DNA of 64,000 nt from Anaerolineae bacterium (GTDB lineage Bacteria; Chloroflexota; Anaerolineae; Epilineales; JAHCIE01), in the NCBI GenBank assembly GCA_026129165.1, contig JAHCIP010000001.1:13766-77765 (forward strand), given 5' to 3'. This document shows positions 38 through 47,537 of this stretch, in pieces (positions within the stretch are counted from its first letter, which is position 1; every line of letters starts with the position of its first letter). Both the position numbers and the translations under genes were made by a program. The notes under the pieces are model-generated. The model did no database searches and was not told where the DNA came from. It saw only the letters and a list, made by a program, of their open reading frames with translations.

Positions 38-1450
38 ATGAAAAGAGTACTCCTTATTCTCGGCGTCATCCTCGTCGCCAGCGCGGGCGTCTTCGCCTAT
101 CAACGCTTGAACACCCCGCCGCCCCCGCCACCTCAGACCGAAGTTGTGACGCAGCCCCGTATCCAGACGGTATCGGTGGAGGCGCGGCTGGCCCCGGCGC
201 GCCAGGCGCGGCTGGCGTTTAACGGCGCGGGGCGTGTCCAGGAGGTGCTGGTCCAGGCCGGCGACACGGTCCAGGCCGGGCAGGTCTTGGTGCGGCTGGA
301 GTCGGCGGCGCTACGGGACGTGGTGCGCCAGGCCGAAGCGGGCGTCCAGGTAGCCCAGGCCCAGCTCCAACGGGCGAAGCTTGGCCCCCGGGCCGAGGAC
401 ATTGCCGTCGCCGAGATGGCCGTGCGCGTGGCCGAGGCGCAGTTGGCGCGGGCGCAGGCCGGGCCGCGAGCGGAGGACATCGGCGTGGCGCAGGCTGGTC
501 TCAACGCGGCGCGGACGGACCTGGCGCGGGCGCGGGTCGGCGCGACAGCCCAGGACCTGGAGACGGCGCGGTTGAGCATCGAGCAGGCCAAGAACCAGTT
601 GTGGAGCGCGCAGGCGCAGCGCGATGCTGTATGCGGGCGCACGGGCGACGCGGAGAAGACACTCCAAAAGCTTGGCATTCCCCAGGCGGAGTGTGACGCG
701 GCGCGGGCGGTCGTGAATTCGAGCGAGCAGGCCGTCCAGATCGCGGAGCAAGCCTACGCGAAACTGGCGGCCGGGCCGAGGGCTGAGGATGTCAACACGG
801 TGGCGGCGCGGGTGGAGCAGGCCCAGGCGCAGGTGCGGGCCGCGCAGGGGGGGCCGCGGCCGGTGGATGTCCAGGTCGCGACGGTCCTGGTCGAGCAGGC
901 CCAGGCGCAGGCGCGGGCCGCGCAGGTCGGGGCGCGGCCGGTGGATGTCCAGGTCGCGACGGTCCTGGTCGAGCAGGCCCAGGCCCAACTGGCCCAGGCC
1001 AAGGCTGGCCCACGAGCGGCGGATGTGGCCGTCGCCGAGGCGGAAGTGGCCCGCGCCGAGGCCGCGCTCCAGGCGGCGCGTACCGCGCTGGCTGAGACCG
1101 AGCTAAAAGCGCCCTTCGCGGGCGTCGTGGCCCAGGTCCTGTTGCAGCCCGGCGAGGCGGCCACGCCGGCCACACCCGCCCTCCAGCTAGGTGACACGCA
1201 CACGCTACGGCTGGAGACGGAAGACCTGGCCGAGACAGACGTGGCGAAAATTGTGGTAGGGCAGACGGCCAGCGTGGCCCTGGATGCCCTGCCCGAGCAG
1301 TCCTTCAAGGCGAAGGTGACACGCATCAGCCCGGTCAGCGCGGAACGGCGCGGCGACACGGTCTACACCGTGTGGCTGGACTTTGACGGCGGTGCGCCGG
1401 AGGGCGCCTTGTGGGGCATGAAGGCGCTGGTTGATATTCAGCTTCACTAG
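38..1450 (+). CDS. HlyD/DevB-family periplasmic adaptor (membrane fusion protein) of a tripartite ABC exporter. N-terminal TM anchor, long coiled-coil hairpin with repeated 'AGPRAEDI' units, C-terminal beta-barrel domain.
   Basis: 470-aa ORF. N-terminal hydrophobic helix (LLILGVILVASAGVFAY). Repeated coiled-coil segments (GPRAEDIAVAEMAVRVAEAQLARAQ...). C-terminal motifs typical of HlyD/MacA adaptors (LKAPFAGVV...V.VGQTASV..DAL). Directly upstream of the FtsX permease and ABC ATPase genes. Confidence 0.8.
   Translation: MKRVLLILGVILVASAGVFAYQRLNTPPPPPPQTEVVTQPRIQTVSVEARLAPARQARLAFNGAGRVQEVLVQAGDTVQAGQVLVRLESAALRDVVRQAEAGVQVAQAQLQRAKLGPRAEDIAVAEMAVRVAEAQLARAQAGPRAEDIGVAQAGLNAARTDLARARVGATAQDLETARLSIEQAKNQLWSAQAQRDAVCGRTGDAEKTLQKLGIPQAECDAARAVVNSSEQAVQIAEQAYAKLAAGPRAEDVNTVAARVEQAQAQVRAAQGGPRPVDVQVATVLVEQAQAQARAAQVGARPVDVQVATVLVEQAQAQLAQAKAGPRAADVAVAEAEVARAEAALQAARTALAETELKAPFAGVVAQVLLQPGEAATPATPALQLGDTHTLRLETEDLAETDVAKIVVGQTASVALDALPEQSFKAKVTRISPVSAERRGDTVYTVWLDFDGGAPEGALWGMKALVDIQLH
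815..970 (+). repeat. Two tandem 78-bp near-identical repeat units (26 aa each) inside the adaptor coiled-coil region
   Basis: Units 815-892 and 893-970 differ at only a few positions. Encoded peptide VEQAQAQVRAAQGGPRPVDVQVATVL / VEQAQAQARAAQVGARPVDVQVATVL. A third partial unit begins at 971. Confidence 0.85.
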
Positions 1451-1472
1451 GGCGACTCGGTAGGGTACTGTC

Positions 1473-3710
1473 ATGATCCTCAAGAACCTGTGGCGGCGCA
1501 AGACGCGCACCCTGCTGACCCTGCTCGGCGTGGCCTTTGGCGTCGCGGCTGTCGTCGCCCTGTCCGCCTTTGGTGAGGGCTTTGCGTCGAGCTTCGAGAA
1601 GATGTTCGCCACGACCTCGGCCGACCTGACGGTGTCCCAGGCCGACGCGATGATGGCCTTCCTCAGCGCGGTGGACGACAGCCTGGGCGACGAGCTACGC
1701 CAGGTCGCCGGTGTCGAGGAGGTGGCGGGCGAAGTGTTTGGTATGGTCCAGATGGACGAGGCCCCCTACTTCATCGTCATGGGCGAGGACCCGCGCAGCT
1801 TCACCATGCAGCGCTATCGCCTCATCAGCGGTCAGCCCATCACCACCCGCAAGCAGATTCTGTTGGGTAAGCTCGCCGCCAAGAACTTCAAGAAAGAGGT
1901 CGGCTCGACGTTCAGGCTCAACGACTCCACCTACCGCGTGGTTGGCATCTACGAGACGGGCGTCAGCCTGGAGGACGGCGGGGCGGTCATGGGGCTGACC
2001 GACGCGCAGCGGGCCTTCGACAAAGAGGGCAAGGTCAGCTACTACAGCCTGAAGGTGAAGGATGTCCGCCGCATCAGCGAGGTCAAGGCGGCCATCGAGA
2101 AGCAGTGGCCGACGCTGGCGGCGGCGCGGTCCGGCGAGCCGTCGCGCCAGACCGAGATGTTCGGGCTGTACCGCTCGTTTGGCCTATTTATCGGCATCTT
2201 CGCCGTACTGGTGGGCGGGCTGGGCATGATGAATACGACGCTGATGAGCGTGTTCGAGCGCACGCGCGAGATTGGCGTGTTGCGAGCCGTAGGCTGGCGG
2301 CGGCGGCGCGTGGTCAACCTGATTCTGGGCGAGTCGCTCGTGCTCTCGCTGCTGGGCGGCCTCCTCGGTATCCTCATTGGCATCGGCTTAACGCTCCTGG
2401 TGCGACTCTCACCGGCCGTCGAGTCGCTGCTCCAGGGCATCCTGACCCCGACCATGCTGGCGCAGGCGCTGGTTATCGCCCTCCTGCTGGGAGCGGTGGG
2501 GGGCCTCTACCCGGCCTGGCGGGCGGCGCAACTCGCGCCCGTGGAGGCCATGCGCTACGAGGGCGGCAGCGGCGACGTGGGCCGCATCACCCGCCAGCTG
2601 ACGCGCTGGATTCCGGGCAGCGCCCTCCGCAACCTGTTGCGCCGCCCTACGCGCACGCTGGTCACGATCGTCGGCATCGGGCTGGGCGTCGGGTTTATCG
2701 TGGCCTTGAGCGCCATGTCCGAGGGCATGATCCAGGAGTTTACGACGCTGGCCGGCGCCGGGCAGATGGACCTGGTGGTGCAGGACGCCAAGGCGTCTGA
2801 TCTGTCCGTCGCCGCCCTGGACGAACGTGTCGCCGACCAGGTGCGTACCCAACCAGGCGTCAAGGGTGTCTCAAAGATGCTCATGAAGACGTCCAGCGCC
2901 CCCGGCTTACCCTACTTCCTGGTGTTTGGCGCGGATCCGCGTGAAGATTACGTCAAGCACTTCCGCATCCACGAGGGGCGCGTCATCGAGAAGTCACGCG
3001 ACATCATGATTGGCCGCTTCGCCGCCACCAGCCTGAAAAAGGGTCTCGGTGAGAGTATCCGCATCAACGGCGTCGGCTATCAGATAGTCGGTATCTACGA
3101 GACGGGCGTCTCCTATGAGGACACCGGCGGCGTCATCACGCTACGCGAGGCGCAGGAACGGTTTGGCATGGGGCGCAAGCTGACGCTGATGGGTGTCCAG
3201 TTGGACGATCCCAGCCAGGCCGAGAGCATGGCCCGGCAGTTGGAAGCGCAATTCCCCAGTATCACCGTCAGCCTGACGTCGGCCATGACACAGCGGACGC
3301 AGGACTTCGCCACGATGGATGCCATCCTGGGGGCGTTGGTGGCGCTGACGATGCTGGTGGGCGGGGTCGTCATGATGAACGCCATGCTGATGAGCGTCTT
3401 TGAGCGGACGCAGGAGATTGGCGTGCTGCGGGCGGTCGGCTGGCGGCGGCGGCGGATCATCGGCATGGTACTAGTCGAGTCGCTTGCTTTGAGCCTGCTG
3501 AGCGCGTTGATGGGGATTGGCATTGGCATGGGACTAAGCGCCCTGTTCACCCTGGTCCCGACGTATGGGACATTCCTCAAGGCGCTCTACTCGCCCAAGG
3601 TCTTCCAGCAGGTCGCCGCCCTGGCGCTCATTCTGGGGACGATTGGCGGCCTCTACCCGGCCTGGCGGGCATCCAGGATGCAGCCGATTGAGGCGCTACG
3701 GTATGAATAG
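1473..3710 (+). CDS. ABC transporter permease, fused tandem MacB/FtsX-like modules (internal duplication)
   Basis: 745-aa ORF. Two homologous halves, each with N-terminal TM, large periplasmic domain and C-terminal FtsX 4-TM bundle (SVFERTREIGVLRAVGWRRRRVVNLILGESL vs SVFERTQEIGVLRAVGWRRRRIIGMVLVESL). Both halves end ...LYPAWRA.QL.P(V/I)EA(M/L)RYE. Confidence 0.85.
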   Translation: MILKNLWRRKTRTLLTLLGVAFGVAAVVALSAFGEGFASSFEKMFATTSADLTVSQADAMMAFLSAVDDSLGDELRQVAGVEEVAGEVFGMVQMDEAPYFIVMGEDPRSFTMQRYRLISGQPITTRKQILLGKLAAKNFKKEVGSTFRLNDSTYRVVGIYETGVSLEDGGAVMGLTDAQRAFDKEGKVSYYSLKVKDVRRISEVKAAIEKQWPTLAAARSGEPSRQTEMFGLYRSFGLFIGIFAVLVGGLGMMNTTLMSVFERTREIGVLRAVGWRRRRVVNLILGESLVLSLLGGLLGILIGIGLTLLVRLSPAVESLLQGILTPTMLAQALVIALLLGAVGGLYPAWRAAQLAPVEAMRYEGGSGDVGRITRQLTRWIPGSALRNLLRRPTRTLVTIVGIGLGVGFIVALSAMSEGMIQEFTTLAGAGQMDLVVQDAKASDLSVAALDERVADQVRTQPGVKGVSKMLMKTSSAPGLPYFLVFGADPREDYVKHFRIHEGRVIEKSRDIMIGRFAATSLKKGLGESIRINGVGYQIVGIYETGVSYEDTGGVITLREAQERFGMGRKLTLMGVQLDDPSQAESMARQLEAQFPSITVSLTSAMTQRTQDFATMDAILGALVALTMLVGGVVMMNAMLMSVFERTQEIGVLRAVGWRRRRIIGMVLVESLALSLLSALMGIGIGMGLSALFTLVPTYGTFLKALYSPKVFQQVAALALILGTIGGLYPAWRASRMQPIEALRYE

Positions 3711-4683: not shown

Positions 4684-5538
4684 CTAGCGTCTAACAGTGA
4701 ATGCGCCTGATAGAACTAGGTTATTGGGATTCTCAAGATAGAATTCCACCCTATAAACTCCTGTTGGAAAGGGGAGTCCACAGTTAGTATTGGTCTTTGG
4801 GCACCAATTGACCCAATTAAACTCGAAATCGATACAATCGAAGCTGCTTTGCCCACAGATTTTGGGTCCGGTGTCCGAGCTCGAGTTGTCTGGATTTAAA
4901 ACGCCATCCTTATACCACTTTTGGAAAAAAGGCATTCCCCTGTATACATTCTCAACTTCCCATGTATAATAGATTTTGGTTACTACACCTCTAAACTCAC
5001 TCGTAGATATTCTACACTGCCCAGCCTGCAAGTCAAAGTCGCTATCTGCACAGAAAACAAGGTTGTAAAAACGCGGTGTACTTACTCGGGACGGTGGAAC
5101 ATTTGTTAGTGTGGCCAGCGGGATAACCACTACCTTTATCGTTGGCTGTTGGTTAGCTGCTGGCTGAGAGGTAGGGACAGTTATGTTTGTCTCTGCCGAA
5201 GAAGGAGGAGATAGACGACGGAACATTAGCCATCCCATTACGATGATTGTCATTAAGACAACAGAGGAGAGAAGCCCTAGCGCGACTAATTTTGATTGAG
5301 ACGTTCCTTTGATAAGTAGATCTTCTGTTCTAATATCGGGCCGATTTCGTTTAAGCCACGTCACTAACTCGCTGAGTCGTTCGCGACGATACAAATCGAA
5401 GATTAGCTGTCGAACTAATTCGCCTTTGTCTAGTCCTTCATAATCAATGCCTAGATCAGCTGCCGCGTCGCGGAGTTCATCGAAGTTTAGTCTTTGTCTT
5501 AGGACCTCGCGAAGAGCCGATTTGTCCCAGTTTGTCAT
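4684..5538 (-). CDS. Single-pass membrane protein in an AT-rich island: N-terminal cytoplasmic helical domain resembling effector-associated domain EAD1, one TM helix, S/T/P-rich linker, C-terminal six-Cys (presumably extracellular) domain of unknown fold
   Basis: 284-aa ORF. N-terminus LREVLRQRLNFDELRDAAADLGIDYEGLDKGELVRQLIFDLYRRERLSELVTWLKRNRPDI matches my recollection of the EAD1 consensus (F..EL..L...LGIDYE.L.G......LV.Y..R..RL.EL...L...RPD). TM = LVALGLLSSVVLMTIIVMGWLMF. C-terminal domain carries 6 Cys and W/F/Y-rich motifs (FNWVNWCPKTNTNCGLPFP). Local GC is far below flanks. Confidence 0.5.
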   Translation of the reverse strand: MTNWDKSALREVLRQRLNFDELRDAAADLGIDYEGLDKGELVRQLIFDLYRRERLSELVTWLKRNRPDIRTEDLLIKGTSQSKLVALGLLSSVVLMTIIVMGWLMFRRLSPPSSAETNITVPTSQPAANQQPTIKVVVIPLATLTNVPPSRVSTPRFYNLVFCADSDFDLQAGQCRISTSEFRGVVTKIYYTWEVENVYRGMPFFQKWYKDGVLNPDNSSSDTGPKICGQSSFDCIDFEFNWVNWCPKTNTNCGLPFPTGVYRVEFYLENPNNLVLSGAFTVRR

Positions 5539-17033: not shown

Positions 17034-19484
17034 TTATCCGCGCACCATGCGCCGACGATGGGCGACCGGCCGGCCGCTGAGGTCGGTGCGGCGGGCTTGC
17101 TCGGCAAAATGGCGCAGGCGGTCTTCCACCAGGCGGTGCACGCTGCCGTCGGGGAACTTCCCGTCATAGCCGCGCTCACCGGCCGGGTGGCCGGTCAATA
17201 TCTCAATCCCTTCTTCAATCGTGCGGACCGCCCAGATATGGAAGCGGCCGGCGCGCACAGCGTCAACCACCTCGGCTTTGAGCATCAGGTTGGGGATGTT
17301 AGCGGCCGGGATGATGACGCCCTGCTCGCCCGTGAGCCCCAGCGCCTGACACACGCTGAAGAAGCCTTCAATCTTATAGGTGACGCCGCCGACAGCCTGG
17401 ACCTCGCCAAACTGATTGACCGAGCCGGTGACGGCGATACCCTGGTGGACCGGGTAGCCCGACAGGGCCGATAGCAGGGCGTACAACTCGGCCGATGAGG
17501 CGGAGTCGCCCTCAATCTCGTCGTAGGCTTGCTCGAAGGTGATGGTCGCGCCGAGCGACAGCGGGATGTCCTGGCCGTACTGCCCGGCCAGGTAGCCCGA
17601 CAGCGTCAGGAAGCCCTTGGTGTGGATGGGGCCGGACATCTGTGTCTCACGCTCGATGCTCTGGATCGCGCCCTGACCAATAGAGACCCGCGCGCTGATG
17701 CGGGCCGGCTTGCCAAAGGCATAGTCGCCCAGGTCAGCGATGGCGATGCCGTTGACCTGGCCGACGCGGCCACCGGTCGTGTCAATCATGATCGTGTGGT
17801 CGGCGATGAGTTCCATCACCCGTTCAGCCACCAGGTTCGAGTAGTATTCCTGCTTGGCGATGGCCTGGTCCACATCCTCAGCGCGCACGACGGCATGACC
17901 CGCCCGCTCCGCCCAGAAGCTCGCCTCGGTCACCAGGTCGGCGATGTCCAACAGGCGGGTGGATAGCTTGCGCTTGTCCTCCTGCTGGCGAGCGCTGTAC
18001 TCCACCACACGCGCCACGGCCGAACAGTCGAAGTGCCTGAGGCCGTTCTCCTCCACGCGGCGGCGAATAAACGCCGCGTAGTGCATGACCTGGTCCTGGG
18101 TCCAGTCCATGTCCGGCGCGAAGTCCGCCTTGACCTTGAATAGCTCGTGGAAGTCCTCGTCGTACTGGTAGAGCATGTGATACAGGCTGAGGGGGCCGAT
18201 AAGGATGACTTTGAGGTCGAACGGGATAGGTTCGGGCCGCAGCGTTTCCATGGGCAGCGAGGTATACTGCTCGCCCAGGTTCTCGATTTGAATCTGGCGG
18301 CTGAGCAGCGCCCGCTTCAGGGCCTCCCAGGCGAAGGGTGTGCGAAGGACGTCCACGGCGCGCAGGACGAGAAAGCCGCCGGTGGCGCGGTGCAGCGCCC
18401 CCGGCTTGATATGCTGGAAGCTGGTGACCAGCGCGCCGAACGTAGACCGATAGTCCACACGGCCCACCAGGTTATAGTAGGTCGGGTTGCCCTCGATGAC
18501 GACAGGCGCGCCTTGGGTCGCACTGTGATCAATAAGGACATTCACCTGGTAGCGGGCCAGGCTCTCTTCCTGAGATACCGCGAGCATCTGCGTCATCGGG
18601 TTCGTCCCATCCCCCTCAGAATGCGCCGGCCGAAACTGGGCCAGGTTGTCCGGCAGGTCCTTCTGGACGCTGTCCAGGTAGGCCAGCACTTCGGGCTGGT
18701 CGGCGTAGGTCTCGCGCAGGTCCTCGAACAGCGGGCCGACGACGTAGAGGGCCACGTCGCGCTCCAATTGATGCGCCCGCTCGCCCAGGTCGCGCTCCAA
18801 CAGGTGCGCCTGGCGCAGCGTCGCGCCGATGCGCGCCTGGAGTTCCTCGCCGCGCTGCTCGTATTGCTCGCGCTGCTCTGGGGGCAGCTTCTCAAAGTCC
18901 TCGACCGAGATGGGCTTGCTATTGACCAGCGGGATGCTGGCGATGCCCACCTGGGTCTGCTGGAGGGCGAAGCCCAAGTCGTGAGCGTAGGCCTGCAACT
19001 CGGTGTAGAGTTGGTCGCGCTTGCGGCTCAACTCATTGAGCAAGTCCTGCTGGCGCTTGGCGTAGTCCTCGCTCTCGAAGGCGCGGGAGATTTCGCGCTG
19101 CGCTGCCTGGACAAACTGGTCCATGGCGCGGGCGAACTGTGCGCCTCGGCCGGCGGGGAGCGCTATGGCGTTGGGGCGGTCAGGGTCATCGAAGTTATAG
19201 ACGTAGACCCAGTCCGACGGCGTCGGCCGCGTCGGGGCGAAACGCTCCAGGTAAGTGCGAATGGTACTCTCACGCCCGGAGCCAGGCGCGCCCGCGACAA
19301 ATAGGTTGTAGCCCTGCGCGCTGACAGCCAGGCCAAATTCGATGGCGTCAATGGCGCGGGGCTGGCCAATGACGCCACTGAGGGCAGGGACATCGGCGGT
19401 GGTGTCAAAGGGTAAGCTGGTTGGGTCCAGGGTCCGACCCAGTTGGTCGGGGGTCAACGCGAGGCGTTCGAGTAGAGTAGACAT
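17034..19484 (-). CDS. Lon-related ATP-dependent protease (COG1067-type: AAA+ module with long coiled-coil insertion plus C-terminal Lon S16 proteolytic domain)
   Basis: 816 aa. Walker A GAPGSGRES. Long charged coiled-coil insert (EDYAKRQQDLLNELSRKRDQLYTELQ...). C-terminal Lon protease-domain-like region (SAELYALLSALSGYPVHQGIAVTGSVNQFGEVQAVGGVTYKIEGF) containing the putative catalytic Ser/Lys. Confidence 0.65.
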   Translation of the reverse strand: MSTLLERLALTPDQLGRTLDPTSLPFDTTADVPALSGVIGQPRAIDAIEFGLAVSAQGYNLFVAGAPGSGRESTIRTYLERFAPTRPTPSDWVYVYNFDDPDRPNAIALPAGRGAQFARAMDQFVQAAQREISRAFESEDYAKRQQDLLNELSRKRDQLYTELQAYAHDLGFALQQTQVGIASIPLVNSKPISVEDFEKLPPEQREQYEQRGEELQARIGATLRQAHLLERDLGERAHQLERDVALYVVGPLFEDLRETYADQPEVLAYLDSVQKDLPDNLAQFRPAHSEGDGTNPMTQMLAVSQEESLARYQVNVLIDHSATQGAPVVIEGNPTYYNLVGRVDYRSTFGALVTSFQHIKPGALHRATGGFLVLRAVDVLRTPFAWEALKRALLSRQIQIENLGEQYTSLPMETLRPEPIPFDLKVILIGPLSLYHMLYQYDEDFHELFKVKADFAPDMDWTQDQVMHYAAFIRRRVEENGLRHFDCSAVARVVEYSARQQEDKRKLSTRLLDIADLVTEASFWAERAGHAVVRAEDVDQAIAKQEYYSNLVAERVMELIADHTIMIDTTGGRVGQVNGIAIADLGDYAFGKPARISARVSIGQGAIQSIERETQMSGPIHTKGFLTLSGYLAGQYGQDIPLSLGATITFEQAYDEIEGDSASSAELYALLSALSGYPVHQGIAVTGSVNQFGEVQAVGGVTYKIEGFFSVCQALGLTGEQGVIIPAANIPNLMLKAEVVDAVRAGRFHIWAVRTIEEGIEILTGHPAGERGYDGKFPDGSVHRLVEDRLRHFAEQARRTDLSGRPVAHRRRMVRG

Positions 19485-30548: not shown

Positions 30549-32075
30549 CTACACCGTCGCGTAGAGACTATCCACGACCGCATCTATCTCCGCGTCGAGC
30601 AGCTCACCCGCCAGCCGGCGCGTGACCAGCGCCACTAGAGCCGCCGCGCCCTCCGTCAGACGCCCTTCTGCATCCCAGAGCCAGGGGACGGGCAACTGGC
30701 GCAGCGCGGCGATGTGAACCTGGGGGAAGACCGCGCGCGTCTCCTGAAACCGGGCGCGGTAGACCTCGCGCAGCAAACGCGAGTTGAGCAGGCCGAGCAG
30801 ATAGAGTAGGGTATCGCGCCGCCCATCACGCGCGTGGGCGCAATGGACCGAGTTGAGGGCGACCACGCCTTGCTCGTCCAGGGCGAAGACCAGCGTGTCG
30901 GCTGTCTGTCGGCTGACGAGCTTGGGGGGCGCGAAGACCGCCGGCCGACGGAGCGAAGCCCCCCGCTGTTTGAGGTCCGGCGTCAGACAAGCCGGGTCAT
31001 AGTGGATGACATCGCGCGTCGGCAAGACGCGGTAGGGTGTGACGTGACGCCCCTCGATGACGGGACGCCACGTCGGCTGTGGGGGACCGGGGGGGTTAAT
31101 CAGCCGCGCACGGCCCTCGGCTGGCCCAGGGTTTACCCCGTCGCGGACCTCGGCCAGTTGGTCGAGTGGAACGGCCCTCTGCCAGACCCGGTCGCGTAAG
31201 TCAGCCTGTTCCCCTGACCCACCGCGCAGCCACGGCTGCTCGGCCCGCCGCGCCAGGTCCTCCCGGCTCACCACGACTTCAGCCAGCGGCTGGTCCGCCG
31301 TCAATCCCTCGGTCGTGGCAAAGGTGCGGAAAACGGTCGCCCCCTCTCCCGGCCCCACGACCACCACCAGGGGGCGCACCGTCGCCTCGTCAAAGACCGT
31401 GAAGTCCAGCCAATCCACCGCCCGCAGACCCCCCATCACCACGGCACGCCGCATGGAGGCGTAGGAGGCGTTCAGACCCAGCGTGTCGGGCACGATGAGC
31501 GCGGCGACGCCAGTGGGCCGCCGGTGGTACAGCGCCAGCGCCAGGAAGAACAGGAACAGATTGCGCCGCCCGCCCACCACGTCCCCGTAGCGAGCCGTCA
31601 GCGCGGCCTCGACTGCCGGCGCAGGCTTGCGCGACTCACGCGCATAGAACGACACATAGGGCGGGTTAGCGAGGAGAATGTCGCAGGCGGGGAGGACTGC
31701 CCCATCGAGAAGCGCGTCAGCGCAGAGCACATTGGCGGCCAGGTCGGTATCGGGATGGGTAGGCGCTTCGGGACCGAGCGCTTCCCGCAGTAAGACGCGG
31801 CGCGTCTGTTCCACAGCTGATAGGTCAATGTCCACCCCGAAGATGGAGGCTCGCAGTCGGGCCAGCCGTTCCTCCACCGTCAGGGGCCGACCCCGCTGGG
31901 CGGCTTCGTCGTCCAGCAAGCGCCGATAGGCTGCGACCAGGAATATCCCAGCGCCACAGGCGGGGTCCAGGACACGCGGCGGCCCCTCGCCCGCCCAGGC
32001 CGCCCACGCCCGCCTTAGCATGTGACGCACGATGGGCAGCGGCGTGTAATAGACCCCCTGCCGTCTATTCCCCAT
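30549..32075 (-). CDS. N6-adenine-specific DNA methyltransferase, gamma-class (TaqI/Eco57I-like) with C-terminal TaqI_C-like target-recognition domain. No cognate endonuclease detected.
   Basis: 508 aa. Motif I VLDPACGAGIFLVAA. Motif IV LANPPYVSF (NPPY). Preceding YYTPLPIVRHML typical of Eco57I-family MTases. C-terminal LVFALDEQGVVALNSVHC...LLGLLNSRLL resembles the TaqI C-terminal TRD. Confidence 0.8.
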   Translation of the reverse strand: MGNRRQGVYYTPLPIVRHMLRRAWAAWAGEGPPRVLDPACGAGIFLVAAYRRLLDDEAAQRGRPLTVEERLARLRASIFGVDIDLSAVEQTRRVLLREALGPEAPTHPDTDLAANVLCADALLDGAVLPACDILLANPPYVSFYARESRKPAPAVEAALTARYGDVVGGRRNLFLFFLALALYHRRPTGVAALIVPDTLGLNASYASMRRAVVMGGLRAVDWLDFTVFDEATVRPLVVVVGPGEGATVFRTFATTEGLTADQPLAEVVVSREDLARRAEQPWLRGGSGEQADLRDRVWQRAVPLDQLAEVRDGVNPGPAEGRARLINPPGPPQPTWRPVIEGRHVTPYRVLPTRDVIHYDPACLTPDLKQRGASLRRPAVFAPPKLVSRQTADTLVFALDEQGVVALNSVHCAHARDGRRDTLLYLLGLLNSRLLREVYRARFQETRAVFPQVHIAALRQLPVPWLWDAEGRLTEGAAALVALVTRRLAGELLDAEIDAVVDSLYATV

Positions 32076-32613
32076 TCCCTATGCCTTCGTCTTCCTCCAA
32101 CCCCAACGCCATGAGATAACCACGCGCCCGTTCGGTCAGGGGGTAGCGGTTGACCAGTTTCCAGAAGGCGGGTGAGTGGTTGGCCTGTTCCAGGTGCGCC
32201 AGTTCGTGCACCAGGACATAGTCACGCACCCAGGCCGGCATCTTGGCGACACGGTCGCTGATGCGAATCGTCCCCAGGCCGGGGGTGCAGCTGCCAAACC
32301 GTTTCGCCTGATTGGTGACGTAGCTGATGCTCGTCCAGCGCAGGCGGCCGCCAAAGTAGCGCTGGTTCAACTCCTGAGCACGCCGAGCCAGGTCGTCGTC
32401 GCTGACCCGCAGCGACCGTTCGGCCCGCCGCTGGAGGCGCTGCGTCAACTTTTCCACGATAGGCTTCAGGTCGGCCTCGCTGATCCCCTGCGGGGCCAGG
32501 ATTTCGATGCTTCCGTCCGGGAGCGGGCGCGCGCTGACCGTACGCTGGCGGCGCTTACTATAGTTGACTTTAATAGTAGGCGGTGTGGAAGTAGGTGGCT
32601 GAGAGCGTGGCAT
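32065..32613 (-). CDS. DUF45 / YgjP-like zinc-dependent hydrolase (annotated elsewhere as 'M48-family metallopeptidase'; WLM/SprT-like HExxH fold)
   Basis: 182 aa. YVLVHELAHLEQANHSPAFWKLV (HExxH + downstream His/Trp). Family-typical N-terminal region. 11-bp overlap with the MTase start. Confidence 0.75.
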   Translation of the reverse strand: MPRSQPPTSTPPTIKVNYSKRRQRTVSARPLPDGSIEILAPQGISEADLKPIVEKLTQRLQRRAERSLRVSDDDLARRAQELNQRYFGGRLRWTSISYVTNQAKRFGSCTPGLGTIRISDRVAKMPAWVRDYVLVHELAHLEQANHSPAFWKLVNRYPLTERARGYLMALGLEEDEGIGNGE

Positions 32614-32727
32614 GACCCAAGTATAGCACAGCGTGGGCCAAATCGCCGGCTCGAACGCTCGTTCTTGACGGCGGCACGCGCCCTGCTATACTTTGACTAT
32701 CAACGTCGCTACCCAGGAGAGACATCC

Positions 32728-41065: not shown

Positions 41066-44065
41066 ATGTCTGATCTATCCTTCGGTCAGTGGCTCAAGCG
41101 GCGGCGGGCCGGGCTGGGGCTGACCCAGGCCGAACTGGCTGACGCGGTCGGCTACAGCCGCGAAATGATTCGCAAGCTCGAAGTGGACAGGCTGCGGCCC
41201 TCGAAGGCGCTAGCCGTGCGGCTGGCCGCAGTCCTCCAGCTCCCGCCCGAAGACCACGCCGCGTTTATCCGCTTCGCCCGCGACGAGGGCAGCGACCCGC
41301 CGCCTCCCCTGCCCACGCAGACCACCAGCGTCCCCCCACCCTCCACACTCGACGCTTCACGCTCCACCTCTGCTCCCCTCCCCCACAACCTGCCCATTCC
41401 TCCCACCCCCCTCGTCGGGCGCGAGGCAGAGACGCGACAGGTCGCCTCTCTCCTCCACCGTCCCGACGTGCGTCTCGTCACCCTCACCGGCCCCGGCGGC
41501 AGCGGCAAAACGCGCCTGGCGCTAGAAGTGGCGCATACGCTGACGAAAGACCGAGGACGGAAGACGGAAGACGAAGGGCGAAATACGAAATACGCATTAC
41601 GCACTACGGACGGCGTCTTCTTCGTCAACCTCGCGCCTATCACTGACCCCAGCCTGGTGATAGCGACGATAGCACAGGCGTTGGACGTGCGGGAGAGCGG
41701 GGGGCGTCCCCTACTGGAGAGCGTGAAGGACTACCTACGCGAGAAGGAGATGCTACTGCTGCTGGACAACTTCGAGCAGGTGGTCGAAGCGGCTCCTATC
41801 GTGGCCGACCTGCTGGCCTACGCGCCGGGTCTCAAATGTCTCGTTACCAGCCGTATCCCGCTGCACCTGCGCGGCGAGAAGGAGTTCCTCGTTGAACCGC
41901 TCCCGCTGCCAAGCCGGGATAGCCGACCGCTGACGGTAGACGGCCGCCAAGAAACGGATTACGCGGCGCGCATCACGCAATATGCCGCCGTTGCCCTGTT
42001 CATCCAGCGGGCGCAGGATGTGAAAGCCGACTTCCAGGTGACGAACGAGAACGCCCCCGCCGTGGCTGAAATCTGCCATCGGCTCGACGGCTTGCCCCTC
42101 GCCATTGAATTGGCGGCGGCGCGGGCGCGCGTCCTCACGCCGGAAGCCATGCTCCCCCGGCTCCAGCGCCGGCTGGCATTCCTGACCAGCGGCCCCGCCG
42201 ACTTACCGGCCCGTCAGCAGACGCTCCGCGCCACCATTGACTGGAGCTTTAGTCTGTTGACAGCAGGCGAGCAGGCTCTCTTTACCCGGCTGGCCGTCTT
42301 CCACGGCGGGTTCACCCTGGAAGCGGCCGAAGCGCTGTGCGGCGACGACGACGGAGGACGAAGGACGGAGGAAGAGAACTCTCGTCCGTCGTCCGTCCTC
42401 CATCTTCCGTCAGTCCTGGACGGTGTCGAATCGTTGGTCGCCCAGAGCCTGGTGCGGCGTGCCCTGCGTGGCAGCGCCGAGGCAGAAGCAGCCTCGCTGC
42501 CGTTCACCATGCTCGAAACGATCCGCGAGTATGCCCTGGACCGCTTTGCGGCCAGCCCAGAGGCTGGCATGGTCCGACAGAGACACGCCCAGTATTACCT
42601 TGGTCTGGTGGAGGAGGCGGAGCCTCAACTGATGGGGGCTGGGCTGACGGCCTGGTTGGGGCGGCTGGGCGCGGAGTGGGAGAATATCCGGGCGGCGGTG
42701 GGTTGGCTGCGAGACAGCGCCCAGCCAGAGGCCCTGCTCAGGCTCGTTGGCGCGTTACGCCGCTTCTGTGAACTTCAGGGACGCTCCAGCGAGGCGTTGG
42801 CCTGGCTGGAGGAGGGTTTGAACCAGGGCGGGGAGGTCGCGGCGGCGGTGCGGGCCAAGGCTCTCCATGTGGCGTCAAATCTGGCGCAGAACATGGGCGA
42901 CCTGGACGGCGCGGTGCGGTTGGGCGAGGCGAGTCTGGCCCTCCGCCGCGAGTTGGGCGACCAGCAGGGCATGGCGCGGACGCTCAACAACCTGGCTGTG
43001 ACGGCCTGGTCGCAGGGCAATTTCAGCCAGGCCCGCGAGTTACACGCGGCCAGCCTCGCCATCAAACGCGCGCTCAACGACCGGCTGGGCATGGCCTATT
43101 CCCTCAACAACCTGGGCCTGATTGCCACCGACCAGGACGACTACCCCACCGCGCGGGCCTTGCTAGAGGAGAGCCTGACCCTGCGGCGAGAATTGGGCGA
43201 CCAGCACGGCGTCGCCGTCTCCCTTCTCAACCTGGGCAATGTGGCCCGCCAGCAGGGTCAATTGGGGGAAGCCCGCGCCCTCTACGAGCAGAGCCTGGCG
43301 CAGTTACGCCGCCTGGGAGATCGGGCCAATGAGGCGCGGGTGCAGAGCGTGCTGGGTCTCACCCTGGCCGAGCAGGGTGACTACGCCGCCGCCTTCGCCC
43401 ATTTGCAGGCCAGTCTGGACCTGCGGCGGACGCTCGGCAATAAACGCGACATCACCGTGTCGCTTAACAATCTGGGGCAGGCCGCGCTCTATCAAGGCGA
43501 TGTGGCCTGGGCGCGGCTGGTGTTTGAGGACGCCCTGGGCCTGGCCCGCGAGGGCGGCGCGAAGATGGGGCAGGCCAACGCGCTGGTCGGGCTGGGCCAG
43601 GTGGCCCTGGCTGAGGGGCGGTGGGAAGACAGCCGGCGCTATCTGCTGGCGGGGCTGGACCTACAGCGCGAGCTGGGGGATCAGGGAGGGGTAGCGACAA
43701 CGCTGCTCGCCCTGGCGAAGCTCAATGCCCACGCTGGCGACATGGGGAACGCTCTTGCTAGGGCGCGCGAGAGCCTGGGCGAGTTGCACCGGCTGGGCCT
43801 TCAACTATTCCTGGCCGATGCCCTTGAAACCTTAGTCGGGCTGCTTGGGCGTGGCGATCCCGATGGGGCAACCCGCCTGGGCGGGGCAGCCGCCGCCTTG
43901 CGGGCGAGACTGGGGATTCCGCTGCCGCGAGGCGCACAAGGGGAGTGGGCGCGACGGCTGGACGAACTGAGGGGAGCGCTGGGGGGGAATCGTTTCGAGG
44001 CCCTGTACCAGACGGGCCACACGCTACCCCTCACTGAAGCCGTCGCGGAGGCGCTGGCGGATTGA
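41066..44065 (+). CDS. STAND-type regulator: N-terminal XRE-family HTH, NB-ARC/AAA ATPase module, C-terminal TPR array. Carries two in-frame insertions derived from a palindromic repeat family.
   Basis: 999 aa. HTH LGLTQAELADAVGYSREMIRKLE. Walker A LTGPGGSGKTRLA, Walker B LLLLDNFEQV, GLPLAIELAAA (NB-ARC GxP-like). About 12 TPR units (...LNNLA...YSLNNLG...LLNLG...). Low-complexity inserts TKDRGRKTEDEGRNTKYALRTTDG and DDDGGRRTEEENSRPSSVLHLPSVLDG. Confidence 0.8.
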   Translation: MSDLSFGQWLKRRRAGLGLTQAELADAVGYSREMIRKLEVDRLRPSKALAVRLAAVLQLPPEDHAAFIRFARDEGSDPPPPLPTQTTSVPPPSTLDASRSTSAPLPHNLPIPPTPLVGREAETRQVASLLHRPDVRLVTLTGPGGSGKTRLALEVAHTLTKDRGRKTEDEGRNTKYALRTTDGVFFVNLAPITDPSLVIATIAQALDVRESGGRPLLESVKDYLREKEMLLLLDNFEQVVEAAPIVADLLAYAPGLKCLVTSRIPLHLRGEKEFLVEPLPLPSRDSRPLTVDGRQETDYAARITQYAAVALFIQRAQDVKADFQVTNENAPAVAEICHRLDGLPLAIELAAARARVLTPEAMLPRLQRRLAFLTSGPADLPARQQTLRATIDWSFSLLTAGEQALFTRLAVFHGGFTLEAAEALCGDDDGGRRTEEENSRPSSVLHLPSVLDGVESLVAQSLVRRALRGSAEAEAASLPFTMLETIREYALDRFAASPEAGMVRQRHAQYYLGLVEEAEPQLMGAGLTAWLGRLGAEWENIRAAVGWLRDSAQPEALLRLVGALRRFCELQGRSSEALAWLEEGLNQGGEVAAAVRAKALHVASNLAQNMGDLDGAVRLGEASLALRRELGDQQGMARTLNNLAVTAWSQGNFSQARELHAASLAIKRALNDRLGMAYSLNNLGLIATDQDDYPTARALLEESLTLRRELGDQHGVAVSLLNLGNVARQQGQLGEARALYEQSLAQLRRLGDRANEARVQSVLGLTLAEQGDYAAAFAHLQASLDLRRTLGNKRDITVSLNNLGQAALYQGDVAWARLVFEDALGLAREGGAKMGQANALVGLGQVALAEGRWEDSRRYLLAGLDLQRELGDQGGVATTLLALAKLNAHAGDMGNALARARESLGELHRLGLQLFLADALETLVGLLGRGDPDGATRLGGAAAALRARLGIPLPRGAQGEWARRLDELRGALGGNRFEALYQTGHTLPLTEAVAEALAD

Positions 44066-44803: not shown

Positions 44804-46159
44804 CTAGATGCCCCCAACAAATCTACCCGGGTTGAGCGTCCCCTGTGGGTCGAACTGGGTCTTGAGCGCCTGCATCAGGCGGAAGTCGGAGCGCGTCGGC
44901 CCCCACACGCCGATGGCCATCTTGATGGCGGTCGGTGCGTGCTCGACCACACTCGTCCCGCCCAGGTCGGCCAGCCGGGCGCGGAGGGCGTGACCTGCCT
45001 GAACCAGGCGTGCCTGGAGAGCTTCCTCCTCCCCAAAGCCGCGCATCGTCGTCAGCACCACACCGTTGCCCGCATAGGCGATCTGGCCGACGGGCAGACC
45101 GTGGTCACGGGCGACGGCCTGGGCCGCCTGCATGGCGTCGGCGACGCGGCTGGGCAGCACGGCGTTCTTGAAGCGCAGGGCGCGGCGGGCCGTCATGTCC
45201 AGCGGCAGGTCAGCCAGCGCCGCCCAAAGTTCAGCGTCCGCTTCCACCGTTCGCGGCGCGCCCCCCACCCGCTCGGCCATCTGGCCCAACTCGCGCAGTT
45301 GCCGTTCAACGGCGGGCGGGATGCCGCCGAAGCGCGCCAGAAGCAAGACCTCGGTGGCGGGTGGGGCCAGGTCGGGGACGCGGAAGAGGGCCTGGCGCAC
45401 CGCGCCCATATCCAGGATGCATAGGGCAGCCGGCGTCATGGACGAGGTGAGGACCTGGCCCGCGAGTTGGCCGGCCACGTCTAGGGTCGGGCAGATGACG
45501 GCCAGCGTCCCCCACGTGCGCGGCAGCGGCTGGAGCTTGAAGGTGGCCTCCACGACAACACCCAGCGTACCCAGCGAGCCGACGAACAGCTTGGGCAGAT
45601 CATAGCCGGCCACGTTCTTGACCACCTTGGCCCCGCCGAGATAGACCATCCCGTCGGCCTGGACGATGCGCAGGCCAATGAGCAGGTCGCGCGGCGTGCC
45701 GAAGCCCAGGCGGTGCGGGCCGCTGGCGGCTGTAGCGATGAGGCCGCCTAGCGTGCGGTTCGCCCCGCCCGGCGGATCCAGCGGGAGCCACTGACGCCGC
45801 TCGCCGAGGGTTTGCTGAAGTTGGCCGAGGGTGATGCCCGCCTGGACGGTCACGGTCAGGTCGGCCGGCTCGTATTCGAGAACGCGGTTCAGCCGGCTCA
45901 GGTCGAGGACCAGGTCGGCGCGGCGCGGGGGCTCGCCCAAGCCTAGTGTCGTCCCCGCTCCACGAGGGATGACCGCCAGCCCCTGGCGATTGGCCCAGGC
46001 CAGCGTCGCGGCCACCGCCTCCTCGTCGCCAGGGCGCACAATCAGGCCCGGCGTCACGCCCTCAATGGCGGCTTCGGCCAGGGCGTCGGGCTCGGTTTGA
46101 ATATGCTCAGGGCCGAGGGCATCGGCCAGTTGGTCAGGTAAGGTAAGTGAATTTATCAT
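44804..46159 (-). CDS. FAD-binding oxidase subunit, GlcE-like (glycolate oxidase FAD-binding subunit homolog)
   Basis: 451 aa from ATG 46159 (MINSLTLPDQLADALGPEHIQ...). FAD_binding_4 motifs (RGAGTTLGLG, P.ADLVLDLSRLNRVLEYEPADLTVTVQAGITL). Start overlaps upstream stop as ATGA. Confidence 0.7.
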   Translation of the reverse strand: MINSLTLPDQLADALGPEHIQTEPDALAEAAIEGVTPGLIVRPGDEEAVAATLAWANRQGLAVIPRGAGTTLGLGEPPRRADLVLDLSRLNRVLEYEPADLTVTVQAGITLGQLQQTLGERRQWLPLDPPGGANRTLGGLIATAASGPHRLGFGTPRDLLIGLRIVQADGMVYLGGAKVVKNVAGYDLPKLFVGSLGTLGVVVEATFKLQPLPRTWGTLAVICPTLDVAGQLAGQVLTSSMTPAALCILDMGAVRQALFRVPDLAPPATEVLLLARFGGIPPAVERQLRELGQMAERVGGAPRTVEADAELWAALADLPLDMTARRALRFKNAVLPSRVADAMQAAQAVARDHGLPVGQIAYAGNGVVLTTMRGFGEEEALQARLVQAGHALRARLADLGGTSVVEHAPTAIKMAIGVWGPTRSDFRLMQALKTQFDPQGTLNPGRFVGGI

Positions 46160-46929
46160 CGGCGTAACATCGCTATCATGGCCTGCGCGGTGGTCAGTTC
46201 GGCGCGAACGTCCGCCTCCCGAATGGGAACTTTGGACGGGTAGCGCGAGTCGGTGTAGTACTTCTGAACCTGTTTGCACAAGGGCATGTAATGGATTAGG
46301 GCCGGATCGTACTTGAGGGCCTCGTCTAACAACTCGACTAGCTCGTGAGTACGCTGAAGCCGCCAGCCGTGATGGATGAGAAAGGCTTTCAGGAACTTTT
46401 CGAGGGCCTGTTGCAGGAAGAAGGCGGCTCCCTCGGCATCACTATCTTGAAGCAGGACTTTGATGCGGCGTAAGTCGCGCTCGGCCTTCGCGTACCACTC
46501 CTGTGCATAGCGGCGCGCCCGGGGGGTGCTGCCATAGCTCGGCGGCCCTGGCTCCCGCACCACCCGCACAGAGGATCTGTCGGCGGGGGACCGACGGTAG
46601 AGCCACTCGCCCTGGCGCAGAATGTCCTCGATGAAGTGGTCGCCGATGTCCAGCCGCTCGTTGATTTCATCCGGTGTGTACACCAGAATGTCCATTGGCC
46701 CGTAGGGGTGACGCCCATCTTCGCCCTCCAGGCAGGCTCGCGCTTCCCTGTAACGCTCGGCTGAGGACGCGAGCGTGGTCTTGATGAGCAGCAGGTCAAT
46801 GTCGCTGTCGGGGCGGGGATGGCCGTAGGCCTGGGAGCCGAACAGGATAATCGCTTCGGGCGCATAGCCTTCGACCAGCCGGGCGACGATCGTCTGGATC
46901 ACCTCTTGCCTCTCCACTGTCACTACCAT
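46156..46929 (-). CDS. Fused minimal nucleotidyltransferase (MNT) + HEPN domain protein
   Basis: 257 aa from MVVTVERQEVIQ. MNT motif ILFGSQAYGHPRPDSDIDLLLI (GS...[DE]xD). C-terminal HEPN with Rx4HxL motif (GWRLQRTHELVELL). Confidence 0.75.
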   Translation of the reverse strand: MVVTVERQEVIQTIVARLVEGYAPEAIILFGSQAYGHPRPDSDIDLLLIKTTLASSAERYREARACLEGEDGRHPYGPMDILVYTPDEINERLDIGDHFIEDILRQGEWLYRRSPADRSSVRVVREPGPPSYGSTPRARRYAQEWYAKAERDLRRIKVLLQDSDAEGAAFFLQQALEKFLKAFLIHHGWRLQRTHELVELLDEALKYDPALIHYMPLCKQVQKYYTDSRYPSKVPIREADVRAELTTAQAMIAMLRR

Positions 46930-46952
46930 CGTCCCCTCCTCTGACCCTCCAA

Positions 46953-46982
46953 CCTCCCGAAGGTTCCACAACCTTCGGGAGG
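46953..46982. repeat. Palindromic element CCTCCCGAAGGTT-ccac-AACCTTCGGGAGG (copy 2 of 2)
   Basis: Same 13-bp stems as 33120-33149. Sits in the 75-bp spacer between the PRTase stop and the MNT-HEPN start. Confidence 0.85.
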
Positions 46983-47004
46983 TTCCTAAGATACAAGGAG
47001 GCCA

Positions 47005-47537
47005 TTGGCATCCAGACCTTGCGCCGCCAGCGCCTCGACCAGTTCCGGGTGCGGTTCCCAACGGCCCTCGGCGTATACCTGGCGGTCCCAGGGGAAGAGG
47101 GCCAGGGCATCGCTGACGAGGGCGACCAGGTCGGGCATCGGGTTGGCCCACGAGTGGGCGACGAGGCAGGCGGTGACGACGTCGGCCGCGCCACGCGCCC
47201 GAACCTCCTCGGCTACCAGGGCCAGCGTCTCGCCCGTGTCCGCGATTTCATCTATCACCGCCACCCGCTGCCCCTGGACCGCGTCGGGGACGGGAACCTT
47301 CCAGACCGGGCGGCTGGCGACGACGCGATCCTGGACCCGGCGAGTGACGCGCACCGGGTAGAACTCGCAGCGCAGCATACAGGCGACGGCGGTGGCGGGA
47401 AAGAGACCCGTGCGCGCCACGCCGACCACCAGATCCACATCACGCGCCGCTTCCGCCAACCGCTGCGACAACTGGTAGAACCGCGACCAGCCGATGTCTT
47501 CAATTCCCTGTCGGTGGGCGTAGTCGTAGCTTTGCAT
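47005..47537 (-). CDS. Phosphoribosyltransferase-domain protein (type I PRTase fold)
   Basis: 177 aa from MQSYDYAHRQGIEDIGW. PRPP-binding loop RVAVIDEIADTGETL. The longer ORF-track start reads through a repeat element. Confidence 0.65.

Follow-up and report, generated by a model that had tools for sequence, protein, structure and literature searches.

A predicted orphan DNA methyltransferase gene overlapping a short DUF45 zincin gene in one lineage of Anaerolineae

A 64-kb stretch of DNA from an Anaerolineae bacterium (contig JAHCIP010000001.1, positions 13,766 to 77,765; hereafter the window, in whose coordinates positions are given unless another locus is named) carries two overlapping genes on its minus strand. 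The upstream gene (32065..32613) encodes a short DUF45/YgjP-like zinc metallopeptidase of 182 aa, referred to here as the zincin, and the downstream gene (30549..32075), recognised from its open reading frame (ORF) and Pfam matches, encodes a predicted solitary gamma-class N6-adenine DNA methyltransferase of 508 aa, referred to here as the methylase. Both proteins are already held by NCBI, from an Anaerolineae metagenome-assembled genome, as MCW5848504.1 ('M48 family metallopeptidase') and MCW5848503.1 ('N-6 DNA methylase'), respectively. The 3' end of the zincin gene reads GGGAATGGGGAATAG and the ATG of the methylase gene lies within that string, so that the final codons of the zincin gene contain the methylase start codon; the two genes share the 11 bp ATGGGGAATAG (32065..32075, minus strand). 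This two-gene arrangement, with both ORFs on one strand and 11 bases in common, had been recognised in a preliminary description of the window made from its letters alone, and it stands. The interpretation favoured here, which draws on gene structure, domain and motif content, purifying selection, synteny, and a survey of which genomes have the pair, is that the locus probably holds two functionally independent genes, an ordinary orphan methylase and a housekeeping zincin, that share an operon in one Anaerolineae lineage.

Most of the methylase is covered by Pfam domains. Its catalytic domain begins at residue 4 with motif X (GVYYTP) and is matched by N6_Mtase (1e-09, 38.6 bits against a cut-off of 20.4) and Eco57I (1.3e-06, 29.0 bits, cut-off 25.3), and a TaqI_C domain (PF12950; 4e-14, 53.3 bits, cut-off 26.5) occupies residues 338-463 and spans profile positions 2-118 of 118. 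The S-adenosylmethionine (SAM)-binding motif I (xxDPxxGxGxF), which reads VLDPACGAGIFL at residues 34-45 and is conserved across homologs, lies N-terminal to the catalytic motif IV, NPPY (residues 137-140; 31656..31667, minus strand), and this is the motif order of the gamma class. Across 16 homologs N137, P138, and P139 are invariant and Y140 is nearly so, and motifs X, I, II, III, and IV are all intact. The earlier assignment to gamma-class methylases with a TaqI_C domain, for which LLANPPYVSF had been read in the protein, is borne out by the Pfam scores above cut-off, the NPPY tetrapeptide, and the motif order. The ratio of nonsynonymous to synonymous substitution rates (dN/dS) between the methylase gene and its orthologs is 0.18-0.30, so the gene is maintained by selection; its third codon positions have a GC content (GC3) of 0.80, within the 0.71-0.88 range of the neighbouring genes, and base composition shows no break at the locus. 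Judged by its sequence, the protein is best described as a conserved orphan gamma-class N6-methyladenine (m6A) methyltransferase, with a predicted activity and a presumed DNA target.

A different reading of the same protein, in which it is inactive or acts on RNA or protein instead of DNA, seems most improbable. In comparison with its nearest relatives, the window clade has lost both the usual C-terminal helix and a loop of about 45 alignment columns just before NPPY, and NCBIfam returns a weak match (1.1e-03) to the protein glutamine methyltransferase PrmC, in which NPPY is likewise present. The short spacing before NPPY is, however, presumably similar to that of M.TaqI, which counts against the loss having been disabling, and the intact series of motifs, the TaqI_C DNA-recognition domain, and the purifying selection on the gene likewise argue for an active DNA methylase.

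Among solved structures, the best sequence match of the methylase is to CamA of Clostridioides difficile (PDB 7lni, 8cxz; E value 1.2e-07 over residues 4-213), an orphan that is not known to have a cognate nuclease. In both proteins a gamma-class N-terminal catalytic domain with NPPY is followed by a C-terminal DNA-recognition domain, but only the catalytic domain aligns, at low identity, and the recognition domains are too unrelated for a target motif to be transferred from one to the other. CamA has a role in sporulation and the target CAAAAA, neither of which can be assumed for the window methylase. The NPPY core and the TaqI_C-type domain also align with M.TaqI (PDB 2ibs, 1aqj) and M.BseCI (PDB 7qw5) over residues 118-442 (E value 6.6e-06). 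M.TaqI and M.BseCI are each paired with an adjacent restriction endonuclease, whereas no endonuclease is recognised adjoining the window methylase or 11 relatives examined. With CamA as the closest solved structure, the premise of the preliminary description that TaqI_C methylases normally belong to restriction-modification (R-M) systems is a weak one.

NCBIfam and PADLOC match the methylase through its generic catalytic domain only, the best PADLOC matches being type II methylase models (MTase_II, 5.7e-26). More specific assignments were considered and rejected. For membership of the BREX PglX, MADS MAD2, and Alw26I families, NCBIfam scores of 17.7-30.5 bits compare with curated cut-offs of 353.5-900, and the PADLOC matches to mad2 and PglX reflect the shared catalytic domain only. 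Type IIG membership fails on both score and architecture, no fused nuclease domain being recognised by Pfam.

Close relatives of the methylase are few, a search of 5.8 billion proteins yielding four at 78-80% identity and then a handful at 40-58%. The genomic contexts examined comprise the window and 11 further (L001, L170, L002, L171, P0007, P0008, P0010 on two contigs, and P0011-P0013; labels of this kind denote loci compared with the window). In all 11 of these further contexts, whose methylases are 40-80% identical to that of the window, no recognisable nuclease lies nearby and the neighbours are housekeeping genes throughout, in agreement with the earlier view of the methylase as solitary. 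A DUF45 gene lies directly upstream of the methylase gene in L001 (80% methylase identity), L170 (approximately 79%), L002 (50%), and L171 (42% over a fragment). The methylases of P0007, P0008, and P0010-P0013 (40-48/50% identity) are accompanied by neither a DUF45 gene nor a recognisable nuclease, with a radical-SAM gene on the upstream side and an MgtC gene on the downstream side as recurrent neighbours. Neighbour-joining trees place the DUF45-linked methylases together in a single clade that falls within the DUF45-less orphans. The P0010 protein is longer (780 aa) owing to an N-terminal extension of about 190 aa; Pfam finds nothing in this extension, and the idea of a hidden nuclease domain there was discarded. 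A metagenome scan with the methylase alignment gave, among the matches listed, only distant relatives (19-36% identity), which were used as a background set; no DUF45-like ORF occurs at any of 85 methylase-anchored loci, 80 distant metagenome relatives included.

Orphan relatives at 43-47% identity were also seen in L003 (8001-10343), L168 (1308-3107), and L167 (425-2080). An MgtC gene lies downstream in all three, and a radical-SAM gene lies upstream in L168 and in L003 together with its twin L004. This suggests that the MgtC/radical-SAM-linked methylases occupy a second locus, independent of the first and inherited vertically in a different lineage.

The surroundings of the pair in the window are metabolic. 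Downstream of the methylase gene, and convergent with it, are genes for a SnoaL-like protein, a glyoxalase, small and large aconitase-family subunits, a cytochrome P450, a short-chain dehydrogenase/reductase (SDR), OsmC, an aldo-keto reductase, and a two-component system; divergent from the zincin gene, on its upstream side, are genes for a 2Fe-2S ferredoxin, a flavin adenine dinucleotide (FAD) monooxygenase, a dynamin-like GTPase, and a CAP-domain protein. Pfam annotation of approximately 15.7-51.6 kb, i.e., about 15 kb downstream and 19 kb upstream, recognises no nuclease, helicase, or HsdS domain, in line with the preliminary description, which had reported metabolic flanks and no nuclease, helicase, or specificity subunit. 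Neither mobile-element nor defence-island hallmarks were found over the same distances, and Rfam and tRNA scans of the window returned no matches.

These observations bear on the possibility that the methylase is a remnant or one half of an ordinary type II R-M system, whose endonuclease has been lost or is encoded elsewhere, and which is either a relic or still protects host DNA. The type II models among the PADLOC matches and the presence of M.TaqI and M.BseCI among the nearest solved structures are consistent with such an origin, as is the comparatively rapid evolution of the methylase, which is 51% identical between the window and L002, compared with 67-82% for neighbouring proteins, a pattern seen in the target-recognition domains of R-M methylases. 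A nuclease-like gene is nevertheless recognised beside none of the 12 members examined (40-100% identity), no mobile-element or defence-island signature was found within about 15 kb downstream or 19 kb upstream, and vertical inheritance, native codon usage, and the dN/dS values point to a long-maintained function rather than a decaying relic. An R-M origin of this kind is considered unlikely.

The zincin is matched by the YgjP-like Pfam family PF01863 (8e-24, 85.2 bits, cut-off 26) over profile positions 136-193 of 207. Its zinc-binding and catalytic motif, HELAHLEQANH (HExxHx5H; 32176..32208, minus strand), had been noted previously as part of YVLVHELAHLEQANH and is present as read, with H136, E137, H140, and H146 invariant in 25 orthologs; 47 columns of the alignment of these orthologs are invariant. 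The gene has a dN/dS of 0.09-0.18. The family is large, with more than 7,800 matches, the best 120 of which are 59-95% identical to the zincin, nearly all about 165-210 aa in length, and in many cases labelled Chloroflexota/Anaerolineae. The zincin is recognised as a defence protein by neither PADLOC nor NCBIfam, and it is probably a small, soluble HExxHx5H zinc metallopeptidase, conserved across Chloroflexota, with a housekeeping role and a predicted peptidase activity.

The catalytic domain of the predicted zincin structure superposes on a minimal, minigluzincin-like zincin fold. The minigluzincins themselves (proabylysin, 4jiu; projannalysin, 4jix; selecase, 4qhf) are archaeal proteins of about 105-112 residues that are 17-21% identical to the zincin, and they lack the N-terminal module of some 70 residues that the zincin carries in addition, in which a long helix accompanies three strands (residues 14-68). 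SprT and Wss1, proteases whose targets are DNA-protein crosslinks, have folds similar to the predicted one as well. PF01863/COG1451, the family of the zincin, was founded on Escherichia coli YgjP, which reportedly has a weak uridine triphosphate (UTP) pyrophosphatase activity in vitro.

Comparison of zincin orthologs bears on whether the two genes belong together. A scan of GTDB species genomes gave at least 592 ortholog loci, of which the best 80, at 53-70% identity and none from the clade of the window, were inspected. A methylase gene adjoins the zincin ortholog in 0 of these best 80 loci, and an N6-methylase-like ORF, detected with a methylase-family profile, lies within 6 kb in two, in neither case adjacently. 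R-M-like genes occur near the sampled orthologs only in L056 and L078. The 123 immediate neighbours are heterogeneous and metabolic, with flavin reductases (13), class-I SAM methyltransferases (10), MobA-like transferases (9), and YqeC (6) among them, and no R-M family appears among the 25 commonest neighbour Pfam families. Conservation of the methylase-DUF45 adjacency, whose absence the preliminary description had named as grounds for dropping its proposal, was thus not found in either direction outside one narrow clade, the counts being 0/80 sampled zincin loci and 0/85 methylase loci.

Some of these ortholog neighbourhoods have features of their own. In L056, from Candidatus Leptofilum, a 1082-aa type ISP enzyme (418-3663, plus strand; ISP_coupler, N6_Mtase, and Type_ISP_C domains) is encoded 2.3 kb upstream of the DUF45 ortholog. 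A class-I SAM methyltransferase gene lies divergently upstream of the DUF45 ortholog in L007, L018, L031, L034, L035, and L050, with products of about 255-277 aa, except in L018, where only a 105-aa fragment is present; these proteins are of the Methyltransf_25/11 type, are unrelated to the window DNA methylase, and come from one Chloroflexota sub-clade, and their position is probably lineage synteny. A recurrent 308-aa neighbour of DUF45 orthologs was considered as a further methyltransferase and rejected, as it carries no class-I SAM-binding motif.

Within the clade that has the pair, which is monophyletic and represented by five loci (the window, L001, L170, L002, and L171), gene order is conserved well beyond the two genes. 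Wherever the flanks were read (window, L001, L002, and L170), synteny extends to the SnoaL, glyoxalase, and aconitase genes, and in three paired loci, L171 among them, to the ferredoxin and dynamin genes. The flanking genes are therefore as syntenic as the pair itself, whose conservation does not exceed that of the background gene order. Most informative are the sister genomes (L005, L006, L172, and L177-L179), whose DUF45 proteins are 68-70% identical to the zincin: the upstream dynamin gene is retained there and the methylase gene is missing; L172 has kept the ferredoxin gene upstream of DUF45 as well. In L177-L179, the DUF45 ortholog (70% identity; 6001-6543 in L177) sits between the dynamin gene and a block encoding OsmC, an aldo-keto reductase, a histidine kinase, and a response regulator. 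This OsmC/aldo-keto reductase/two-component block abuts DUF45 in those genomes and lies about 6 kb further away in the window, and the whole SDR-P450-aconitase-glyoxalase-SnoaL-methylase block is absent from L177-L179. The methylase gene thus marks the edge of a multi-kilobase block that genomes either have or lack in its entirety. As a gene order, the pairing is specific to one lineage and arose once, and each gene thrives without the other.

The anatomy of the junction is consistent with shared expression. In related loci, the zincin and methylase genes are separated by -14 to +18 nt, and the tail of the zincin that is encoded in the overlap is poorly conserved and predicted to be disordered (predicted local distance difference test score, pLDDT, <50 for residues 175-182). 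Since the junction is always tight, co-transcription of the two genes is likely, as is translational coupling in the window, and such shared expression accounts for the anatomy with no need to invoke a functional partnership. The promoters of the zincin and ferredoxin genes likely both lie in the 114-bp divergent intergenic region that separates these genes (32614..32727). A promoter-like site on the plus strand (32665-32692; TTGACG, 16 nt, TATACT) faces the ferredoxin gene. A scan for consensus promoters and terminators found neither a minus-strand promoter for the pair nor a convincing terminator, and an extended -10 element, TGcTATACT, was found by eye on the minus strand (32620-32628), 6 nt before the zincin ATG. 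This spacing suggests a leaderless or near-leaderless transcript that would begin at the zincin start and also carry the methylase gene.

DUF45 genes do occur in R-M loci, as the preliminary description had stated for type I systems, although in a form that differs from the zincin. DUF45 ('SprT family') genes stand beside hsdR, hsdM, and hsdS on two plasmids, Acetobacter pomorum pSH2 (WP_116100474.1) and Geobacillus pEF60063-1 (WJQ05505.1); a third plasmid example that was inspected, from Marinobacter, is not in an R-M locus, and literature searches on DUF45/YgjP and restriction-modification yielded nothing relevant, the apparent matches concerning DUF450. The R-M-linked proteins are 242-245 aa long and match the PF01863 profile over its full length (193-200 bits, profile positions 2-205), whereas the 182-aa zincin matches the C-terminal third of the profile only and lacks about 60 central residues. 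The two forms share the PF01863 family, the HExxHx5H core, and 47% identity over a 64-residue catalytic segment. No hsdR, hsdM, or hsdS gene lies next to the zincin gene (15.7-51.6 kb), and, unlike the R-M-linked genes, none of the 80 orthologs sampled adjoins an R-M gene. The occurrence in type I R-M loci, as seen in the two plasmid examples, is that of a longer DUF45 protein of a different subfamily, and by sequence the short DUF45 of Chloroflexota is a subfamily distinct from the R-M-linked form.

The principal competing view is that the zincin and the methylase are functional partners, the zincin serving as an accessory, as a regulator through proteolysis of the methylase, or as a protease or nuclease effector gated by methylation, such that the two would constitute a minimal two-gene defence system. 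The occurrence of DUF45 genes beside type I R-M genes on plasmids and the likeness of the predicted fold to SprT and Wss1 would fit a partnership. Several further points weigh against the independence of the two genes or limit the case for it. The junction is tight or overlapping in 5/5 paired loci, and the pair has been kept together in L170 despite an altered upstream context; some would read this tightness and retention as selection for co-expression. The count of zero adjacent methylase genes comes from the best 80 of at least 592 loci and is therefore a sample and not a census. The endonuclease search covered approximately 15.7-51.6 kb of the 64-kb window, so that a cognate nuclease may be encoded elsewhere in the genome, and Pfam often fails to recognise restriction endonucleases, a diverse group of enzymes.

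Set against a partnership, the zincin family is present at no fewer than 592 GTDB loci with no adjacent methylase gene among those sampled, and the relatives of the methylase live without a DUF45 gene. The adjacency arose once and has been kept no better than that of the SnoaL, glyoxalase, and aconitase genes, in a stable housekeeping neighbourhood rather than a defence island. Neither PADLOC nor NCBIfam places the zincin among defence proteins, and the DUF45 proteins that are linked to R-M systems are of the other subfamily. The proposal in the preliminary description that the zincin is an accessory or effector of the methylase is not supported, given the lack of conserved adjacency outside one clade and the sister genomes that retain DUF45 without the methylase, and a partnership of this kind is regarded as very unlikely. 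A narrower version, in which the short-DUF45 zincin was recruited in this clade alone as the partner of the orphan methylase, controlling its abundance by proteolysis or processing methylase-DNA complexes, is given equally little credence. If it were true, the tight coupling would reflect selection for a fixed protein ratio, and the pair would be a new zincin-methylase module unrelated to classical restriction.

Independence of the two genes thus remains the probable interpretation: the pairing is restricted to a single narrow lineage and elsewhere each gene prospers without the other, so that the methylase is taken to be an ordinary orphan and not part of a new defence system. The methylase, with its N-terminal SAM-binding/NPPY domain followed by the TaqI_C domain, most likely methylates a specific genomic motif, and most likely for an epigenetic or housekeeping purpose rather than for protection against restriction. 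Its gene would have come to adjoin the 3' end of the zincin gene on a single occasion, at the edge of the several-kilobase block that sister genomes lack, and the pair would have been inherited vertically since that arrival. The zincin promoter probably drives transcription of the methylase gene, whose translation is probably coupled to that of the zincin gene through the 11-bp overlap, and the two products would have no functional link.

Several other genes of the window were noted in passing. A 284-aa ORF (4684-5538, minus strand) lies in a low-GC dip at 4-6 kb and has a GC3 of 0.43, compared with about 0.7-0.9 for its neighbours; its N-terminus matches the Pfam domain EAD7 (effector-associated domain 7; 1.8e-09), and it looks like a recently acquired conflict-system protein. 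A 999-aa protein (41066-44065, plus strand) combines an HTH_3 domain with an AAA_16/NB-ARC NTPase of the STAND type (signal transduction ATPases with numerous domains) and tetratricopeptide (TPR) repeats, and would be a signal-transduction or possibly defence-type STAND ATPase. A 331-aa ORF (46156-47151, minus strand) in which a nucleotidyltransferase domain (Polbeta/NTP_transf_2) is fused to a HEPN domain is a fused form of an MNT-HEPN toxin-antitoxin-like pair. An 816-aa LonC/LonB-like AAA protease (AAA_32, LonB_AAA-LID, LonC_helical, and Lon_C domains) is encoded at 17034-19484 on the minus strand.

The locus matters little beyond annotation, adding one more predicted, vertically inherited orphan m6A methyltransferase lineage in the poorly studied Chloroflexota. 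It also illustrates that adjacency with an overlapping start and stop, even when maintained across approximately 50% protein divergence, is no proof of a functional module where the surrounding synteny is equally well kept and the genes are widespread apart. For the protein family, at least two populations go under the label 'DUF45': long proteins with a link to type I R-M systems, and short ones of Chloroflexota whose role is apparently housekeeping. Inferences drawn from the long form should not be carried over to the short one.

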